Source: an uncultured archaeon (lineage in GTDB: Archaea > Asgardarchaeota > Lokiarchaeia > Sigyniarchaeales > SOKP01). From it: 64,000 bases of DNA. The position numbers and the translations under genes were made by a program. The notes beneath the pieces are model-generated. The model ran no database searches. It had not been told where the DNA came from and saw only the letters and a list, made by a program, of their open reading frames with translations. Shown here one piece after another: positions 6,004 to 55,561 of the stretch (the first letter of the stretch is position 1; every line of letters starts with the position of its first letter). Where the stretch lies: NCBI GenBank assembly GCA_964508365.1, contig CAZDTP010000009.1, positions 865 through 64,864 on the forward strand. Reading direction: 5' to 3'.

Positions 6004-6552
6004 TTATTCCATACTTTCGGTGGTAGATTTATATATTTTTAAAGTTAATTTGGAAAATACATCATCTACTTTGGTGCCATTTTTCGCACTTGTTTCTAGA
6101 TATTCGCTTGCGGAAACTTGTTGTTGGATGTGACCAACTTCATCTAAATTAATTGTTCTATTTTCTGAGGTCAAGAGATCTAGCTTGTTTCCAACTAGTA
6201 TATTTGGAACGATTCCGATTTTATCTTCCACTTCTTCTTTCCAAGTTAATATGCTATCTAGAGTGTCTTTCCTCGTCAAATCGAACGCATAAACTATTCC
6301 TCTCGCACCTTTATAGAAAGCGTATCGAACCCATTTAAAACGAGGTTGACCTGCTAAGTCCCAGACTTGTAAGGTAATCAAATTTTCAATTTCGGGAAAT
6401 TTAATATATTTTACAAAAAAATTAGAACCAATTGTTCTTTGGGCATCTGGTACAAATCTCCTTTTTAAGTATTGGTTAAGAATCGTAGTTTTTCCTACTT
6501 CCGAATCTCCTACAATACAGATTTTGAAAAAGTATTTGTTTGACCCTACCAT
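6004..6552 (-). CDS. Rab/Ras-like small GTPase
   Basis: G1 GDSEVGKTT, G2 QRTIG, G3 WDLAGQ, G4 GNKLDL, G5 ETSAK. YKGARG resembles the Rab YYRGAxG element. There is no C-terminal Cys prenylation motif (the protein ends ...KSTTESME). Confidence 0.85.
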   Translation of the reverse strand: MVGSNKYFFKICIVGDSEVGKTTILNQYLKRRFVPDAQRTIGSNFFVKYIKFPEIENLITLQVWDLAGQPRFKWVRYAFYKGARGIVYAFDLTRKDTLDSILTWKEEVEDKIGIVPNILVGNKLDLLTSENRTINLDEVGHIQQQVSASEYLETSAKNGTKVDDVFSKLTLKIYKSTTESME

Positions 6553-37446: not shown

Positions 37447-38646
37447 CTAGAATTTATGCAATTTTACTCCACAGTTTTTACAGCGACTTTCTGTTAAATC
37501 TTTAAAATGAGATTCATGAAATAATGATTTGCAATTATCACACCTTAAGATATCTTGCCCTTCCTCAAATATTAAATTACAAACAGGGCAAGACTTAAAC
37601 ATATCATCAGAATCTAAATCGCCAAATTTTATTGACTCAACATGAGAAAGTTCCGGCGTTTTAGGCTCTTTTTTAGCTTTTATCCTTGGTTTGGAAAGAG
37701 ATGTGAGCTTTTGAACTTGAGACACTTCAGTTGGAATCTTTAATAAATAGAAGCAATGAGGGCATCGAACTGTTCCCGCTTGTATCATTTTTCTGTCTTT
37801 TTGGGAATTAGCCCAAGAAGATAAACAGTGAATATGATATGGTGTTTGGCAATTAGGGCAATAACGACCGCTAACATAAAAGGAACTTTTAGTGTAGGGA
37901 TTTATATCTGAAAAGCAGATCGAACATTTTTTATAATCTGCTAAGCCTCTTATCTGTAACAATCTTTGTTCTTGATCTTTTGTCAGATCATGGACTCTTA
38001 AAAGATCAGCTGCTATTTTTCTAAGAAAAGCGGGATTTTCAATAATTGAAGTTTTCCCGTCGCCGTAAGTTTTAATATTAGATCCTGCTAAATCATGAGC
38101 CGCTTGTAGTAAAGATTGAGCGTCATTATTGTAATAATAGTTTCCCCCTGTGAGGTCGCTCATCCTTTTTAAAATATTGAGAGGAGAAAGTTCACCCAAT
38201 CGAAATGTATCTATTTTTACATTTAATCCTTGAGCTAAACGTGCCATTTTCAATGGATCAATAGAAGTAGTAGTAAAATTGCCATCCGAAATAACAAGAA
38301 TTCGAGGAACTTTAGCTGATATCTTTCGTAATTCAGAAATAATTAATTTAATAGAAAGTCCTAGGGCTTCTCCCAGAGCTGATTTTCCAGAAACCTCTAA
38401 ATCATCTAACACTTCAAAAAGTATTTTATTATCATTTGTAAAATCCATTATTTTTTTTGGTTTATTCGAAAATTGTACAATTGCGAACGCACTTGAAGTA
38501 TCTTGAGCTAATCTCTCACTTATTAATTTTTTCAAAGCATCTATACTACAATTTAACCGATTTGGGGTATAATCTGCTCGATACATTGATCTAGAGGTGT
38601 CGATGCAAATAACAATATTTTCTGAGTGCCATTCAGCCAAATTCAA
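37447..38646 (-). CDS. vWA-domain protein with two C-terminal RING-like zinc fingers
   Basis: MIDAS DTSRSM plus SGKSALGEAL and VISDGN define a vWA domain (aa 10-190). Finger 1 (37753-37926) is CSIC-x17-CPNC-x4-H-x2-C..W..-CPHC. Finger 2 (37471-37590) is CPVC-x12-CDNC-x4-H-x2-H-x9-CKNC. TTG start. Confidence 0.75.
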   Translation of the reverse strand: MNLAEWHSENIVICIDTSRSMYRADYTPNRLNCSIDALKKLISERLAQDTSSAFAIVQFSNKPKKIMDFTNDNKILFEVLDDLEVSGKSALGEALGLSIKLIISELRKISAKVPRILVISDGNFTTTSIDPLKMARLAQGLNVKIDTFRLGELSPLNILKRMSDLTGGNYYYNNDAQSLLQAAHDLAGSNIKTYGDGKTSIIENPAFLRKIAADLLRVHDLTKDQEQRLLQIRGLADYKKCSICFSDINPYTKSSFYVSGRYCPNCQTPYHIHCLSSWANSQKDRKMIQAGTVRCPHCFYLLKIPTEVSQVQKLTSLSKPRIKAKKEPKTPELSHVESIKFGDLDSDDMFKSCPVCNLIFEEGQDILRCDNCKSLFHESHFKDLTESRCKNCGVKLHKF

Positions 38647-38823: not shown

Positions 38824-40032
38824 ATGTCTGAAGAGGAGACAAAAAGCGTTGTGATTAAAGACTTCTTCAAAAGTTCTATAATTATTAACGAAATAGATGA
38901 AGCATTAAAATTCAAGCCAGATTCGCTAATTGGAATTGATCAAATTTCCTCAGACAAACTAATAGAAAATAACATAAAAAATATTGAGGATCTAGCGAAA
39001 TTATCGCTCGAGAGTCTTCCAATTATTGAAGAAATTCCTACTAGAGTTCTTCAGAAATGGGTAAGAATCGCACAAGTACTTGAAAAAGCAATCAGAGAGA
39101 AAATAAAAACACATAAGAAAATCTTAATGATAGGTTTGGATAATGGGGGAAAAACTAGCATTTTAGCAGTTCTTCAAGAGAAATTCTCTATAATTAAATC
39201 TCTTCTACCGACACGAGGGGTACAACGCGAGAAATTAGATTTCTTTGGCTACCCCATACTTTCATGGGACCTAGGCGGTCAGGTGCAATACAGAGAGAAG
39301 TTATATTTTAACAGGCCTGAATTATTCTTTACTGAAGCTGATTTGGTACTTTATGTTATTGACACACAAGATACTGATAGATTTGCAGAAGCTGCAAATT
39401 ACTTCCGTCAAGTATTAAAAGCATTGGTTGAATTAAATGAATTCCCTCCAATCATGGTAGTACTCTCAAAAAGTGATAAAGATATTCGTACTTCTATCAA
39501 ATGGCAAAACAATGTATCTGCGATAAAAAATAAATTCGATCATATTATTGTCGAATATAAAGAATTATCAATCAACTATGGTGATACGACAATATATCAA
39601 AAAGAAACTATCATGCAAATGTTCAGCGAAGCTTTGAAATTAGTTTCTGGAACTTCAGAGATAATTGAGAATATCATAGAGGACTTTACTCATTCTATTG
39701 ATGGTAAAGCAACGAGCTTAATTTCGATGGATGGTTTAATTTTTGGAAGTTTCACGAGCTCAGATATTGATGAGGCTTTACTAAATAATACAGCTCTAAT
39801 TATGCAAACACTTTCGAACTTTCATAATTCGATAGGATTAACTAGAGAACCTTCAATCACGCTTGATTTTCCCTTAAATGGATTTGCAATTCGAGGAGAA
39901 AAACTTTTTGAATATTCTGAGCTAAAAATACCAGTATATTTGTGGATACTTAGTGATAATTTCGATTTACTTAATGAGAAAATCGATTACTTTAAACAAC
40001 AGCTTTTACCATTGATAAATTTATTTCTCTAA
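38824..40032 (+). CDS. Arf-like small GTPase with N-terminal HhH-like segment and C-terminal Roadblock/LC7-like domain
   Basis: GTPase (39115-39639): G1 GLDNGGKTS, G2 LPTRG, G3 WDLGGQ, G4 LSKSDK. The C-terminus (39655-40029), SIDGKATSLISMDGLIFGSF...ALIMQTL...ITLDF..FAIRGEKL, fits Roadblock/MglB-type patterns. In the N-terminus, LIGIDQISSDKLIENNIKNIEDLAKLSLESL is HhH-like. Confidence 0.75.
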   Translation: MSEEETKSVVIKDFFKSSIIINEIDEALKFKPDSLIGIDQISSDKLIENNIKNIEDLAKLSLESLPIIEEIPTRVLQKWVRIAQVLEKAIREKIKTHKKILMIGLDNGGKTSILAVLQEKFSIIKSLLPTRGVQREKLDFFGYPILSWDLGGQVQYREKLYFNRPELFFTEADLVLYVIDTQDTDRFAEAANYFRQVLKALVELNEFPPIMVVLSKSDKDIRTSIKWQNNVSAIKNKFDHIIVEYKELSINYGDTTIYQKETIMQMFSEALKLVSGTSEIIENIIEDFTHSIDGKATSLISMDGLIFGSFTSSDIDEALLNNTALIMQTLSNFHNSIGLTREPSITLDFPLNGFAIRGEKLFEYSELKIPVYLWILSDNFDLLNEKIDYFKQQLLPLINLFL

Positions 40033-40064: not shown

Positions 40065-40274
40065 TTATTCGCTTATATCAGCTTTTGCTAAAATTAGATA
40101 TTCAGTACTCTTATCCATCATTTCAATAGCTTTATTTAGTTTTTCTACGACTGAGGTTAATTCCTTCTCTTTTGCGATATCTCTCCATTTTATGTAGCTT
40201 TCTTTATGGGCTTCGTTATGATTCGCCCAATGTTCGCATAATTTGGACAGTTTTAATATTTGTTTATCTACCAT
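40065..40274 (-). CDS. small helical His-rich protein
   Basis: 69 aa from ATG 40274 (MVDKQILKLSKLCEHWANHNEAHKESY...). The longer track ORF (to 40340) adds an N/Y-rich AT-driven extension that I consider non-coding. Confidence 0.35.
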   Translation of the reverse strand: MVDKQILKLSKLCEHWANHNEAHKESYIKWRDIAKEKELTSVVEKLNKAIEMMDKSTEYLILAKADISE

Positions 40275-40371
40275 AATTATGTCCTTATAGTTAATTGTGC
40301 AAATAAATAAAAAGTAATTATTATAGTTGTTATACTTCACTATAATAAAATGTCTTTATATCTCAAAAATT

Positions 40372-40397
40372 AATTGATTTTATAGAATTGATTTTAT
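40372..40397. repeat. 12-bp direct repeat AATTGATTTTAT x2 (14-bp period)
   Basis: Copies at 40372-40383 and 40386-40397, in the 149-bp spacer between the V4R gene stop and the small-protein start. Confidence 0.5.
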
Positions 40398-40423
40398 CTA
40401 GAATTAATTATGTTTATCGAAAT

Positions 40424-41020
40424 TTAAAGCGAAGCTAAAAATTCAGATACTGCGGCATCAGAAAGCTGTTCATCTATTAATTTATCATCAATTTCTTCTG
40501 AGAGGAGATCAAATTTGTATGAACATTTCTCGCCTCCTGTTAAAACGCACTCTACTTCACTACCATCAACATCGATCCCAAGTACTTCAAAAAGACTGTT
40601 AAAAATTCCAAGGTATAGTAAACATAAGTTTTTAGCCGATATATTGCCTACTTCTTGGGTTGCTAAAGAATCGTACACATTTATGATAATATGGTCTTTT
40701 TTAAACATCCCTGTGAGCCCACCGTACCCCATAAGCATTAAGACCTCGATAGTTCCAAAGACAACTTCCTTTTTAATCTCCATTGTTTCTTTACTCCAAT
40801 CCTTGTTAGCAAAAAACTTCTCCAAAAATATCTTGCCTAGAGATTTCCCTACCCATATCAGGATATCTTCAGCATTTGTTCCAGCAAATTCGCAAAATTC
40901 CATTATCTCATTTGGACGTAGCATGACAAGCCTCATGTCTTTTTTTTTTTCACCTAGAAATAGTTGTCCTTCTTTTTCCTCAATATTTATCTGTAATTCT
41001 TTTTTGAGACGTTTAATCAT
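40424..41020 (-). CDS. V4R (4-vinyl reductase) domain protein
   Basis: GTNAEDILIWVGKSLGKIFLEKF ... LMLMGYGGL ... IIINVYDSLATQE ... NLCLLYLGIFNSLFEVLG ... EVECVLTGGEKCSYKF reproduces the V4R pattern, including the terminal E-x-x-C-x3-G-x2-C-x-F. Confidence 0.75.
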   Translation of the reverse strand: MIKRLKKELQINIEEKEGQLFLGEKKKDMRLVMLRPNEIMEFCEFAGTNAEDILIWVGKSLGKIFLEKFFANKDWSKETMEIKKEVVFGTIEVLMLMGYGGLTGMFKKDHIIINVYDSLATQEVGNISAKNLCLLYLGIFNSLFEVLGIDVDGSEVECVLTGGEKCSYKFDLLSEEIDDKLIDEQLSDAAVSEFLASL

Positions 41021-41145: not shown

Positions 41146-42183
41146 CTAAGCTGAGACTAAGGTAAAAATCGTGTTTAATACTTTTTCAATATTATAGCTA
41201 GTTTTAACGGATGTAAAAACAAATGTCCAATTGTTATGCTGCAAACTATCAAATTCAAAAAAGTCAATAATTTCTTTTTCTGTTCTTTTTATTTGATCAT
41301 CATTATTACTATTGTTATGATTAATTAAATCAATCTTATTACCAAGGATTATAAGAGGAATATCTTTTAGATCATTTTCGTTATATATTTTCCAAAACTC
41401 AGTTTTTGATTCGTTAAAGCGTAATTGGTTAGCAACATCGATAATATAAATAATTATATTTGAATCTTGAAGGCCTAATAACCACTTTTCCCTAAAGGTG
41501 CTTTGCCCTGGGCTATCCCATATTGAGAGAAGACCATCTTGTCTCTGGATATACTCAATGTTGAATCTTTTACTCGGTGTAAAAAAATTGTCGTTAAACT
41601 TACCTGTTTTGATTCTCCTTGTAAAGGAGCTCTTCCCGGTTTCATCCAACCCAAAAAGAAAGACCTTTGTAAACAATCCAGAGGGATGAAATGAAACTTC
41701 AGGAGCTTTTTCAAGTGTTTCATCCCCAAATCTTTTTATATCAATAAATAATGTGATTAAGAAGTTTTCTATTTCGGTATCGTCTTTAAAAGAGCAACAT
41801 CTTTCAATATTTAATAATTCATTTGACATATCAACAAAAATTTCTCGGTAATCGTATGGATTATCGTCTTTTTCAAATACTAATCCGATAAGCATTTCAA
41901 TATTAATGCATATAGTATAGAGGTTTTGGTTCCCAATCAATTGAGAAACGGGATTGCCAATTACAAACGGATTAGAGGTATTCTGCGTAGAATTTGTTTT
42001 ACTTTTGGATATGATTTTTTCACAACAATTATCTTCTAGGGATCCATGATCGTGTCCTTGGATGATTTTTAATACTATTTCTTTATTATCCTTTTTGTCT
42101 ATATCTTCGGGATAACTATAGATATCAAGAGTGTCTAAATCAAGAGTATTTTTACGCTTTAATAAAAATATTTTAGATAACAC
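41146..42183 (-). CDS. Arf/SR-beta-like small GTPase with ~170-aa N-terminal alpha/beta domain (possibly longin/roadblock-like)
   Basis: GTPase (41149-41670): G1 GLDETGKSS, G2 FTPSKRF, G3 WDSPGQ, G4 GNKIDL, G5 TSVKT. The N-terminal domain (41704-42183) has no recognised motif. LYTICINIEMLIGLVFEKDDNPYDYREIFVDMSNELL is compatible with a longin-type core. GTG start. Confidence 0.75.
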   Translation of the reverse strand: MLSKIFLLKRKNTLDLDTLDIYSYPEDIDKKDNKEIVLKIIQGHDHGSLEDNCCEKIISKSKTNSTQNTSNPFVIGNPVSQLIGNQNLYTICINIEMLIGLVFEKDDNPYDYREIFVDMSNELLNIERCCSFKDDTEIENFLITLFIDIKRFGDETLEKAPEVSFHPSGLFTKVFLFGLDETGKSSFTRRIKTGKFNDNFFTPSKRFNIEYIQRQDGLLSIWDSPGQSTFREKWLLGLQDSNIIIYIIDVANQLRFNESKTEFWKIYNENDLKDIPLIILGNKIDLINHNNSNNDDQIKRTEKEIIDFFEFDSLQHNNWTFVFTSVKTSYNIEKVLNTIFTLVSA

Positions 42184-42349: not shown

Positions 42350-43741
42350 TTATGTATTTGTGTCTTCTTCACTATCCGCTTCTTCTTCCAAGATTTCATC
42401 TTGATCTTCTTCAGAGAGTTCTTTTGGTTCTTCTTTTTCTTCTTTAGAAGGTTTCTCTCCAACAGGAGTGTCACACACAGGACATTTTCTCCATCCGGGT
42501 CTTAAACTATATCCACAGTTAGAACATTCAGGCATCTCTTGATCAGGTTGCCATTCAGGAATATTTAATCCCCCTCTTCTTCTTTTTTCAGCTAATTCCT
42601 GTAAATCTTCTTCTTTCCATACCTCCATACCTTCAGGGATTCCCGAACCGCGCTCTTCAGCGAATTTAAGTAAATCTTCTTCCTCCCAAGTAGGAAGGTT
42701 TGGTTGGGTAGTTAACCTCTTTTGAGCTTCGTTAGCGAGCTCTTCAGCGGTCCAAGCTTTTAACTCTTGACCTCCTGGCGTTCTAATCCCTCCTTCTGAA
42801 GGTCCAGAAACCTGTCCTTCGGAGATAGATTGTTGTGGCCCTGGTAAAGGTATTTGACAACATGAAGCAGACAATTTTAAAAAAGCTTCAAAACAATTTC
42901 CAAAACGAGACTGTTCTTGACCTTCATCGGTAATAAGGATGATACTTTTTTTGTCAGAAGGAAGAGGAACTATAATACTACAAACAGCTGTGTCTGATTT
43001 AACTCTCTCGGATTCTATAGCAGTCATAATTTTTTCCATGGAGTTGTTTAAATCAGAATCTTTCATCAAAAAATCACAAATTGGGTCGCCATGTCTTTGA
43101 AATTCCTCGTGATATTTTGATAACTGATTTTTAGTAATAATAGAATCTAGTGAATTAATGATGGCGCTCATATAGGGAAAAATATGAGATTTAGGTTCTT
43201 TTTGTGAATCATCAAGTTTGTATCCTCCTAGATCAATGTTTCCCGTAAAAGGAGCGAACAATGGTTCTTGACCTTTAATTTTCCCATATAATGTTGTTCT
43301 ACCAACAAAACATTTTATCTCCCCATAATACGCAATAGTATTATCTATTAGTTGGATTTTGTCAGTATAAGAAATTCGAGGAATAGTACGAAAAATGACA
43401 TCAACCCAAGGAAGTTCTTTTACAGGTATTATAACAACGCAAGTCTTAATAATTAATTCTGATAATTTTTTAAGATATTCCTTTAGATTTTTTTTAATTT
43501 CTTTATATTTGTCTTTTTCTAATTCAGTCTCAGCATTCTTCATAAACTCATTGAATTTTTCTTCGTTTTTTTTAACAGAACCTCCATACGACTTTACATC
43601 TCCTACAATATTATCTTTTAAAATGAAAGTAGCATCGTTTATGATTTTACTTTGTAGTTCTGTAAGTTCTTCTACTAAATAATCACTTACATCAAAATCC
43701 AAACTGTTTATAAAGATTTCAAACAATTTTGCTTCAGACAA
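42350..43741 (-). CDS. protein with uncharacterised N-terminal region, three W-x-x-E-[ED]-L repeats, zinc ribbon and acidic tail
   Basis: The repeats are AWTAEELANEAQKR, TWEEEDLLKFAEER and VWKEEDLQELAEKR (about 42542-42769). The Zn ribbon is CSNCGYSLRPGWRKCPVC (42473-42526). The C-terminus is EEKEEPKELSEEDQDEILEEEADSEED. TTG start. Confidence 0.5.
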   Translation of the reverse strand: MSEAKLFEIFINSLDFDVSDYLVEELTELQSKIINDATFILKDNIVGDVKSYGGSVKKNEEKFNEFMKNAETELEKDKYKEIKKNLKEYLKKLSELIIKTCVVIIPVKELPWVDVIFRTIPRISYTDKIQLIDNTIAYYGEIKCFVGRTTLYGKIKGQEPLFAPFTGNIDLGGYKLDDSQKEPKSHIFPYMSAIINSLDSIITKNQLSKYHEEFQRHGDPICDFLMKDSDLNNSMEKIMTAIESERVKSDTAVCSIIVPLPSDKKSIILITDEGQEQSRFGNCFEAFLKLSASCCQIPLPGPQQSISEGQVSGPSEGGIRTPGGQELKAWTAEELANEAQKRLTTQPNLPTWEEEDLLKFAEERGSGIPEGMEVWKEEDLQELAEKRRRGGLNIPEWQPDQEMPECSNCGYSLRPGWRKCPVCDTPVGEKPSKEEKEEPKELSEEDQDEILEEEADSEEDTNT

Positions 43742-54562: not shown

Positions 54563-55561
54563 ATGGCTAAGAAAAATGCAGAATCTAAAGAAGATGAACA
54601 AAATGGTACAATTAAAACTGAAGTAGTTTACAATCTTAAGGACCTACCCGGAGTAGGAGATACTACTGTAAAAAAGTTACAAGACTCGGGCATTGTTTCA
54701 ATTAGGACTTTAGCTATTTATCCCATTACTAAATTGATGGAAGATGCGGGGATAGGAGAAAAAACTGCTCAAAAGATAATTAAAGCTGCTCAAGATATTG
54801 AAAATATGGGCTTTAAAAGTGCTGATATAATCTGGGAAAAGAGAAAACAAATGAATAGGTTAACAACAAGCAGTTCTACATTAGACGAAATATTAGCAGG
54901 AGGTGTGGAACCAGGGTCTGTAACTGAATTTTATGGTGAATATAGAACAGGAAAAACTCAAATAGCTCATCAACTTTGTGTTAATGTCCAACTACCATAT
55001 GACGAAGGAGGACTTGAAGGTAATGCACTTTATATCGATACTGAAGCAACCTTTAGACCTGAAAGAATAATTCAGATGGCTGAAGCTAAAGACTTGGATT
55101 ATCATAAGATACTACAAAATATCACTGTTGGTAGAGCATATAATTCGGATCATCAAGTACTCCTAATCCAAGAAGCAGCAAAGATCGTTAAAGAAAAAAA
55201 TATTAAACTGGTTGTTGTAGATTCAATAATAGGACATTTTCGTAGCGAATATGTTGGAAGAGGCACATTAGCTAATCGTCAACAAACTTTGAATGTCCAT
55301 ATTCATGATTTATTGCGATTAACGGAAATCTTTGACGAATTAGCTGTCATTTTTACAAATCAAGTTTCGTCGAAACCTGATGTATTTTATGGAAATCCCA
55401 CAGTCGCTACTGGAGGAAATATTTTAGCTCACGGGGCTACTGTAAGAATTTATTTAAGAAAAGGGAAGGGAGAACAGAGAGTAGCAAAAATGATTGACGC
55501 GCCTCATTTACCCGAAGCAGAGGCAGTTTTCTCAATTACTGATGGTGGGATAAAAGATTAA
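54563..55561 (+). CDS. radA: DNA repair and recombination protein RadA
   Basis: The N-terminal HhH is LKDLPGVGDTTVKKLQDSG...GIGEKTAQKII. Walker A is GEYRTGKTQ and Walker B is KLVVVDS. The C-terminal ATGGNILAHGATVRIYLRKGKG is typical of RadA/Rad51. Confidence 0.95.
   Translation: MAKKNAESKEDEQNGTIKTEVVYNLKDLPGVGDTTVKKLQDSGIVSIRTLAIYPITKLMEDAGIGEKTAQKIIKAAQDIENMGFKSADIIWEKRKQMNRLTTSSSTLDEILAGGVEPGSVTEFYGEYRTGKTQIAHQLCVNVQLPYDEGGLEGNALYIDTEATFRPERIIQMAEAKDLDYHKILQNITVGRAYNSDHQVLLIQEAAKIVKEKNIKLVVVDSIIGHFRSEYVGRGTLANRQQTLNVHIHDLLRLTEIFDELAVIFTNQVSSKPDVFYGNPTVATGGNILAHGATVRIYLRKGKGEQRVAKMIDAPHLPEAEAVFSITDGGIKD

Follow-up and report, generated by a model that had tools for sequence, protein, structure and literature searches.

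Introduction

At the lysosomes of eukaryotes, nutrient signalling is anchored by the Rag/Gtr GTPases, the origin of which is traced to the Asgard archaea. Within the RagGtr clade, eukaryotic Rags are nested among Asgard sequences (Vargova et al., bioRxiv 10.1101/2024.02.28.582541), and fusions of a GTPase (G) domain with a roadblock domain are published for Lokiarchaeia (PMC10933270; bioRxiv 10.1101/2024.02.28.582541). The small GTPases of the strain MK-D1 are catalogued (Tran et al., 2024, PMC10933270), a Switch II insert being described in GTPase-roadblock forms and roadblock-mediated dimers being predicted; in Suppl. Fig. 6a of that work, such proteins are labelled “GR,” “XGR,” or “GRX,” where X appears to stand for a domain left unassigned, and include those later deposited in the PDB as 8yl2 and 8zla. 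The 8yl2 protein comes from Promethearchaeum syntrophicum MK-D1 and its entry is entitled [quoted passage not shown] (released 2025-09-10), while 8ZLA and 9M28 bear the title “monomeric Rag-like small GTPase ... (LokiRagM)” (released 2025-11 and 2026-03); a literature search for 8YL2 and for LokiRagO/LokiRagM returned no paper. The present work concerns a gene at positions 38824..40032 (+ strand) of a window of 64,000 nucleotides, i.e., the whole stretch of DNA analysed, from contig CAZDTP010000009.1 of an uncultured Lokiarchaeial archaeon (assembly GCA_964508365.1). The encoded protein exhibits three domains, namely an N-terminal helix-hairpin-helix (HhH) module, a G domain with intact G1–G5 motifs and a C-terminal roadblock domain, and both its homology and its fold match the Asgard Rag-like and Rag/Gtr GTPases.

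Asgard Rag-like GTPases composed of a G domain and a roadblock domain are thus already known, and the sole new feature is the conserved N-terminal HhH module, an HhH-G-roadblock architecture of which no description was found in the accessible literature and no mention of HhH in the supplement of PMC10933270. Since Lokiarchaeial proteins of the G-plus-roadblock kind have been published and crystallised, the protein brings no new principle. A preliminary description of this DNA had set the Rag-like domain order against the prokaryotic norm; the order is indeed present but, for the same reason, not unusual for Lokiarchaeia. Its value lies mainly elsewhere: it represents its kind in a well-conserved form that lends itself to study, and it raises the question of the binding partner of its HhH module.

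The Gene and its G Domain

The open reading frame (ORF) begins with ATG and ends with TAA (40030-40032), directly followed by a T-rich stretch, and encodes a complete protein of 402 residues. Its start codon is supported by the orthologs, since they share the N-terminus MSEEETK.., and an identical protein is already present in the NCBI, JGI, and Logan collections. The window has a G+C content of about 31% and carries archaeal markers, namely RadA (with Rad51 and HHH_5 domains), the catalytic subunit of an A-type ATPase and an MtrH-like gene. Over the whole protein, Pfam returned Arf (PF00025) at 71.1 bits (residues 94-226, profile positions 11-132 of 174) and Gtr1_RagA (PF04670) at 70.8 bits (residues 99-313, profile positions 1-215 of 232), the cut-off being about 22 bits in both cases. 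At the level of these profiles, a chance origin of the motifs and domains is excluded, since both families score far above the cut-off; the match to PF04670 on its own does not discriminate, however, because PF00025 scores equally.

The G domain, of the Arf/Rag type according to Pfam and to PDB searches, spans residues 96-275 (39109..39648) and retains all of its motifs. The G1 motif or P-loop, GLDNGGKT (residues 104-111; 39133..39156), is invariant or nearly so in an alignment of 36 orthologs; in switch I, PTRG (residues 129-132; 39208..39219), P129 and T130 are invariant in this alignment as well as in one of 110 sequences; and the G3/switch II motif WDLGGQ (residues 148-153; 39265..39282), with Gln153 at the catalytic position, is invariant in all alignments. 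These G1 and G3 motifs, quoted in the preliminary description as Arf-family hallmarks, are of the Arf type (GLDxxGKT and WDxGGQ) and concur with the Pfam Arf match. The G4 motif SKSD (residues 215-218; 39466..39477) is a variant of N/HKxD, where the Rag type reads HKxD (HKFD in 8yl2) and the Arf type NKxD; among the orthologs, K216 and D218 are invariant except in one gapped row and position 215 is S in 32 of 36, N in two and H in one. The G5 motif TTIY (residues 255-258; 39586..39597), of the Rag/Gtr type “T-S/T-I-Y/W” with T255 and I257 conserved, leads into the helix joining the C-terminal domain; a profile built on G5 and the C-terminal region aligns it with TSIFD of Gtr2, the equivalents in RagA and RagC being TSIWD and TSIYD (Suppl. 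Fig. 6, PMC10933270). In addition, switch II is five residues longer than in Arf1, the spacing from GGQ to VID amounting to 27 residues here and 26 in 8yl2 as compared with 22 for the ARF1 sequence shown in PMC10933270 (Suppl. Fig. 6a), where the Switch II insert is marked in the GTPase-roadblock architectures.

In searches against the PDB, the full protein matched 8yl2 (E 5e-38, residues 95-391) and 8zla (E 5e-28, residues 95-393). When only the G domain (residues 95-275) was used as query, the same two entries came best (110.5 and 93.9 bits), i.e., about twice the score of any Arf, since Arf/Arl/Sar chains reached at most 53.5 bits and the Asgard ArfR structures 8oun and 8oum only 40 and 37 bits. 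A mixed family profile placed RagA (2e-22) just above Arl3; with the orthogroup profile, the RagA match extends to residue 297, whereas the Arf alignments end at about residue 218-244. MglA is absent from the 60 best PDB matches listed for the full protein, the G domain and the family profiles, and by these scores the G domain is not of the MglA-like kind to which the preliminary description had alluded. Features expected at the two ends of an Arf G domain were looked for within the protein: ahead of it, no Arf-style N-terminal amphipathic helix was seen, residues 1-95 forming a conserved separate module with a linker helix and residue 2 being Ser, followed by EEE, and not Gly; after it, there is no C-terminal helix following an Arf-type G5 but a Rag-type G5 and then a roadblock domain of 127 residues. 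Because the scores obtained with the G domain, with G5 plus the C-terminal region and with the orthogroup profile differ in this manner, the G domain reads as mixed, Arf-like in the sequence of G1 and G3 and Rag-like in its extended switch II, in G5 and in all that lies downstream. The term “Arf-like GTPase” in the preliminary description is therefore correct as to the Arf/Rag branch but too weak a label, since among characterised proteins the closest relatives are Asgard Rag-like GTPases.

The C-terminal Roadblock Domain

A structure model was built with AlphaFold2 on an alignment of 110 sequences, comprising 31 orthologs along with 78 sequences from a paralogous group that a search with the 8yl2 sequence had retrieved, and reached a mean predicted local distance difference test (pLDDT) score of 76.7 and a predicted template modelling (pTM) score of 0.65; it replaced a single-sequence model that was unusable (pLDDT 32). 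In this model, residues 276-402 (39649..40029) follow the a-b-b-a-b-b-b-a order of roadblock domains with pLDDT mostly of 65-87, the elements being a1 276-291, b1 296-301, b2 306-311, a2 314-336, b3 344-349, b4 354-364, b5 369-377, and a3 383-401, and the sequence match to 8yl2 covers this region up to residue 391. When compared with the PDB by Foldseek, the model best matched 8yl2 (E 1.6e-19) and RagA/RagC (6s6a, E 1.3e-15), then 8zla/9m28 and Gtr1/Gtr2 (3r7w, E 1.4e-14); the Rag/Gtr and Asgard Rag-like structures aligned over 300-330 columns with a target-normalised template modelling (TM) score of about 0.7 (E 1e-19 to 1e-10), while Arf-only structures appeared from rank 40, over about 185 columns.

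At the sequence level, the profile of G5 plus the C-terminal region matched only Rag-like and Rag/Gtr chains of the PDB at E <= 0.15, e.g., Gtr2 (5.7e-4), RagA (1.8e-3), and RagC (6.5e-3), and the best chain annotated as Robl_LC7 was 7f8m (E 0.22). Since Pfam returned nothing significant for the isolated pieces 1-98 and 268-402, the identities of the terminal domains were taken from profiles and fold comparison. In the model, residues 276-402 are predicted to adopt the roadblock fold, and the G-plus-roadblock unit superposes on RagA/RagC and Gtr1/Gtr2 (E 1e-15 to 1e-10); the Roadblock-like nature of the last ~125 residues and the Rag/Gtr domain order, both put forward in the preliminary description, are thereby borne out in the predicted structure. 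Neither of the two outcomes named in that description as refuting it, i.e., a C-terminus lacking Roadblock/LC7 hits or fold and a G domain of the generic MglA-like kind, was observed.

The N-terminal HhH-derived Module

The protein starts with a leader (residues 1-29; 38824..38910) defined from the ortholog alignment and the model, which carries a conserved IKDFFKS where F14, F15, and K16 are invariant in the 36 orthologs and which is modelled over residues 1-30 as short strands of low confidence (pLDDT 39-70). Next comes a degenerate (HhH)2-like module (residues 30-90; 38911..39093), delineated by phmmer, hhalign, AlphaFold2, and column conservation, with LIGIDQISSDKLIENNIKNIEDLAKLSL... as the N-terminal stretch resembling an HhH domain. 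The helices of the module are modelled at residues 24-29, 40-48, 54-58, and 73-94 (pLDDT 70-87), the last one running on as a linker into the G domain and bearing the invariant pair K78-W79. The first hairpin reads L-I-G37-I-D39, where G37 and D39 are invariant in the 36 orthologs, Asp39 sitting at the usual place of the second hairpin glycine, and the second reads EEIP (E-E/K-I-P in orthologs) and is devoid of glycine. The two Gly-hydrophobic-Gly hairpins for binding the DNA backbone are thus absent from the module, which is moreover acidic (isoelectric point, pI, of 4.9; 10 D+E against 8 K+R). No second copy of the module was found in the 64-kb window.

Searching residues 1-98 against 1.84 billion representative proteins with phmmer gave 18 matches, most of them to the same orthogroup (402-409 residues, or fragments) and two distant. 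One of the latter, P0266, was matched at E 2.8e-4 over a region that is itself a Pfam HHH_5 domain (E 5.9e-16), and hhalign aligned the N-terminal profile of the orthologs with P0266 residues 226-275 at a probability of 95% (E 3.3e-8, 50 columns), with a KW motif in common. P0266 (MFX1519996.1, from a metagenome-assembled genome, MAG, of Promethearchaeota) is annotated as ribosomal protein L13e and consists of an L13e-like N-terminus and two HHH_5 domains separated by acidic linkers; setting orthologs aside, the module has no closer relatives than these domains, which display the same “KWI” helix motif. The module was also aligned with the RadA encoded in the window (54563..55561): residues 34-88 fall on RadA 27-81, which coincides with its HHH_5 domain (residues 25-78 in Pfam), at a pairwise E of 5e-4 but a probability of only 31%. 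As such, the HhH-like segment announced in the preliminary description is verified through P0266, while its resemblance to RadA holds as to the place of the alignment and not as to its probability.

Other comparisons of the N-terminus were weaker. The distant ortholog P0260 reached 14.1 bits with HHH_5, i.e., below the cut-off of 27, and the ortholog profile matched in the PDB mostly HhH-type or related helical DNA-binding domains, namely BLM HRDC, Pol IV, NusA AR, the C-terminal domain of the RNA polymerase alpha subunit (alpha-CTD) and RadA, all at E >= 0.05. The top match of this profile, thioredoxin reductase 6gnc (E 1.8e-4), was treated as spurious since it consists of two weak pieces (best single-domain E 0.054) within an unrelated fold. 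Judging from sequence, residues ~30-90 are an HhH-derived module, which has probably lost the canonical mode of DNA binding. What is labelled “X” in the published architectures of the XGR type can, for this orthogroup, be named a degenerate HhH module.

Orthologs and Conservation

More than 120 ortholog clusters were found at 76-91% identity, nearly all of 402 residues, in MAGs of Lokiarchaeota/Promethearchaeota. From a genome scan using one genome per species, 80 of the 107 relatives found were kept as loci; they encode proteins of 64-95% identity, full length or nearly so, and are almost all labelled Promethearchaeota or Promethearchaeia. The protein hence represents a distinct and unusually well-conserved orthogroup (402 residues, 64-95% identity, at least 80 species-level genomes), where the roadblock domain (86%) and the G domain (83%) are slightly more conserved than the N-terminal module (76%). 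Even the distant orthologs P0255 and P0260 keep all three domains, the latter being of 409 residues, 43% identical and flanked by unrelated genes. No ortholog is named for Promethearchaeum syntrophicum MK-D1 among the matches listed, which does not prove its absence.

As for the taxonomic labels, one of the loci (L007, DATKTW010000126.1, protein HUW90651.1), with the whole gene block 91-96% identical, is labelled “Candidatus Nanopelagicaceae bacterium,” i.e., an actinobacterium; almost certainly, this is a Lokiarchaeial contig that was wrongly binned or labelled. The same block, 64-86% identical, occurs in several further loci bearing the labels Odin-, Thor-, Hod-, or Hermodarchaeota.

Proposed Function and Alternative Explanations

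Taking these elements together, the gene fairly likely encodes a Lokiarchaeial Asgard “Rag-like/RagGtr” GTPase with an N-terminal degenerate (HhH)2 module, acting as a GTP/GDP switch with the HhH module as adaptor. The roadblock domain would probably serve as a platform for oligomerisation and docking of partners, as do the C-terminal domains of Rag/Gtr. From the loss of the glycine hairpins contacting the DNA backbone, the acidity and the invariant Asp kept in the first hairpin, the HhH module would be more likely a protein-protein adaptor recruiting or positioning the switch than a DNA binder, in analogy with the HhH domains of NusA AR and of the RNA polymerase alpha-CTD. Because there is no TOR (target of rapamycin) pathway to plug into, the control of localisation at a membrane or within a complex is taken as a working guess for the cellular role. 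The partner of the HhH module would give a handle on the roles of Rag-like switches in cells devoid of TOR and lysosomes.

Several points weigh against this reading. Regarding the roadblock domain, Pfam Robl_LC7 (PF03259) has no match at E <= 10 for residues 268-402, no second G-roadblock paralog for a Rag-style heterodimer is found within the 64-kb window, and the oligomeric state differs between the Asgard relatives according to the PDB titles, 8yl2 being a homotetramer and 8zla a monomer. Regarding the G domain, the orthogroup profile places Arl3 (E 1e-17) above RagA (E 1.6e-12) in the PDB. Regarding the N-terminus, Pfam HHH_5 (PF14520) does not match, the best hit being IMS_HHH_1 (E 0.06, 14.2 bits), the HhH assignment goes through one transitive link and profile-profile scores, and the adaptor role is drawn from motif degeneracy and charge only.

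Considering the switch itself, the protein could be a genuine Arf-family (ArfR/ArfL) membrane switch with extra terminal domains, relying on an interswitch toggle and membrane insertion instead of a Rag-like platform. This would account for the Arf-type P-loop and WDxGGQ, the marginally top rank of Pfam Arf and the position of both Arl3 and Arf above RagA with the orthogroup profile; it appears very unlikely, though, when the G domain alone scores 110 and 94 bits with Asgard Rag-like chains against at most 53 with Arf/Arl and 37-40 with ArfR, when a folded module of 95 residues with a linker helix, and no free amphipathic helix, precedes b1, and when the Rag-type G5 and the next helix run into a roadblock domain and switch II bears the insert typical of GTPase-roadblock architectures. 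It is highly improbable that the protein is a fused polarity module of the MglA-MglB type, the roadblock domain of which would be a built-in regulator or GTPase-activating protein (GAP) of the G domain, as MglB is for MglA. Prokaryotic roadblock domains do regulate small GTPases, as exemplified by MglB, and MglA-like GTPases exist in Lokiarchaeia (PMC10933270), yet MglA is missing from the PDB matches mentioned above, and the whole chain superposes on Rag/Gtr, where the C-terminal domain provides a platform for dimerisation instead of acting as a GAP. Furthermore, G3 is a canonical DxxGQ (D149...Q153). Such a motif differs from the MglA-type motif.

Considering the N-terminal module, a working nucleic-acid-binding domain would tether the GTPase to DNA, RNA, or the ribosome, e.g., in chromosome- or translation-linked signalling, and the protein would not be a switch for membrane or complex localisation. 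The homology of the module to HHH_5, its alignment with the DNA-binding N-terminal domain of RadA and its nearest non-orthologous relative, in a Promethearchaeota protein annotated L13e with two HhH, speak for this proposal, which is nonetheless unlikely given the G-I-D of the first hairpin with its invariant Asp, the second hairpin lacking glycine, the acidic pI, HHH_5 below the Pfam threshold and no DNA- or RNA-related gene conserved alongside in the 80 loci. Because the closest relative of the module lies in an Asgard L13e-HhH protein, a functional HhH linking the Rag-like switch to nucleic acid or the ribosome, i.e., a translation- or chromatin-coupled signalling GTPase, was also considered and is deemed improbable; if true, this widely conserved protein would be a pre-eukaryotic analogue of the sensing of nutrients and growth by Rags. 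Alternatively, the HhH resemblance might be a coincidence of helical low-complexity sequence, the N-terminus being a lineage-specific extension, the “X” of XGR. That no significant Pfam HhH match exists, that the PDB matches of the profile are all at E >= 0.05 save the probably spurious thioredoxin reductase and that hhalign with RadA remains at 31% would fit a coincidence; it is quite unlikely, however, in view of a phmmer match in 1.84 billion sequences (E 2.8e-4) onto a region independently recognised as HHH_5, the 95% profile-profile probability over 50 columns with a common KW motif, the RadA alignment falling exactly on its HHH_5 domain and the fitting helix pattern in the confident part of the model.

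Gene Neighbourhood

The neighbouring proteins of the window were compared by local tblastn with the 80 ortholog loci. Directly upstream of the Rag-like gene, and divergent from it across an AT-rich intergenic spacer of 177 bp, lies a gene (37447..38646, - strand) encoding a protein of 399 residues with an N-terminal vWA domain (Ssl1/Tfb4-like matches) and C-terminal RING/PHD/zinc-ribbon motifs, for which Pfam returned VWA_2, VWA, Ssl1, Prok-RING_1, and zf-RING_2. From these domain matches, the vWA-RING protein may be a component resembling the ubiquitin system. This divergent arrangement is found in 73 of the 80 loci, a conserved pairing that is noteworthy; in the improbable reading of a switch linked to nucleic acid or the ribosome, the Rag-like protein might act with this ubiquitin-ligase-like neighbour. 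Downstream, a small convergent ORF (40065..40340, - strand), taken from the ORF list, resembles DUF8180 (PF26551, matched on the ortholog of locus L001) and is present in 77 of 80 loci; its true start is probably an internal ATG since the ortholog in related contigs is called at 68 residues. The block further includes genes for MtrH (68 loci), a TPR-like protein (61), a V4R protein (55) and an Arf-like GTPase of 345 residues (50), and its most conserved gene is, for many of the loci that are more distant, that of the Rag-like protein. An operon or partner link to the 345-residue GTPase and V4R was not adopted, the synteny being equally explained by ancestral gene order; because the surroundings of the distant ortholog P0260 are different, the conserved order may indeed reflect shared ancestry.

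The GTPase of 345 residues (41146..42183, - strand) has an Arf-like G domain at residues ~171-345 (Pfam Arf, 90.8 bits; best PDB matches Arl3, Arl8, and Arf1) preceded by about 170 residues with no Pfam or PDB sequence match, and might correspond to a roadblock- or longin-GTPase architecture already in the literature. Directly upstream on the same strand, a gene at 40424..41020 encodes a V4R protein of 198 residues (26.3 bits, below the Pfam threshold), the C-terminal region of which is MsvR-like in NCBIfam. V4R is related to TRAPPC3/Bet3 (PMC10933270), and the two genes may for this reason, by analogy, form a functional unit. The distance separating the V4R gene from the DUF8180-like ORF, compared between the window (40341..40423) and locus L001 (7463..10170) as well as L010-L064, ranges from ~0.3 kb here up to ~5 kb in relatives, the extra DNA in L001 holding the gene of a Prismane/hybrid-cluster protein of 783 residues, and looks like an insertion/deletion hotspot in an otherwise fixed block. 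Downstream of the 345-residue GTPase, on the same strand, a gene at 42350..43741 encodes a protein of 463 residues with a C-terminal zinc ribbon (CSNCGY...CPVCD), a very acidic tail and no other family match, which is kept wherever the flank reaches (27 loci). The third small GTPase of the window (6004..6552, - strand) is a Ras/Rab-like protein of 182 residues (Pfam Ras, 132.6 bits) without extra domains.

Comparison with Known Systems

The closest described proteins are LokiRagO (8YL2, WP_147663357.1-type, 341-342 residues) and LokiRagM (8ZLA/9M28), which come from the same lineage and exhibit the same layout of a G domain and a C-terminal roadblock domain. The homology extends over both domains, with ~34% identity to the 8yl2 protein P0130, and GLDxxGKT, WDLGGQ, the T-T/S-I-Y of G5 and the longer switch II are held in common, in keeping with their rank as best Foldseek matches. 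They are paralogs and not orthologs, though, and neither possesses the HhH module: 8yl2 has an unrelated N-terminus of ~40 residues, whereas the G domain of 8zla starts from residue ~8 and its C-terminus continues for ~80 residues past the aligned region. The G4 motif differs as well, SKSD here against HKFD in 8yl2. RagA/B, RagC/D, and Gtr1/Gtr2 (PF04670) present the same domain order and fold over ~300-330 columns, but only 14-19% identity in structural alignments; they lack an N-terminal HhH module, their P-loop is not of the Arf-like GLDNGGKT type found here, and they work as a heterodimer of two paralogs, when no paired paralog accompanies the gene in the window. To our knowledge, Archaea offer no Ragulator/TORC1 context.

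With Arf/Arl/Sar (PF00025) and the Asgard ArfR (8OUM, 8OUN), the protein shares the type of its G1 and G3 motifs, and by sequence it scores as well with them as with eukaryotic Rags, or better; unlike Arf/ArfR, it has no N-terminal amphipathic helix and carries a roadblock domain after G5, and its G domain alone scores 37-53 bits with Arf/Arl and ArfR, i.e., about half of the Asgard Rag-like scores. The (HhH)2/HHH_5 domains, as found in the N-terminal domain of RadA/Rad51, in NusA AR, and in P0266, are likewise helical modules of two hairpins and ~55-60 residues, with the difference that the module here has degenerate hairpins (G-I-D and E-E-I-P), is acidic, falls short of the Pfam threshold and is fused to a GTPase. 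Finally, MglA/MglB similarly associate a small GTPase with a partner of roadblock fold; in bacteria, these are separate proteins and the roadblock partner is a GAP, whereas here both domains belong to one chain in the Rag order.

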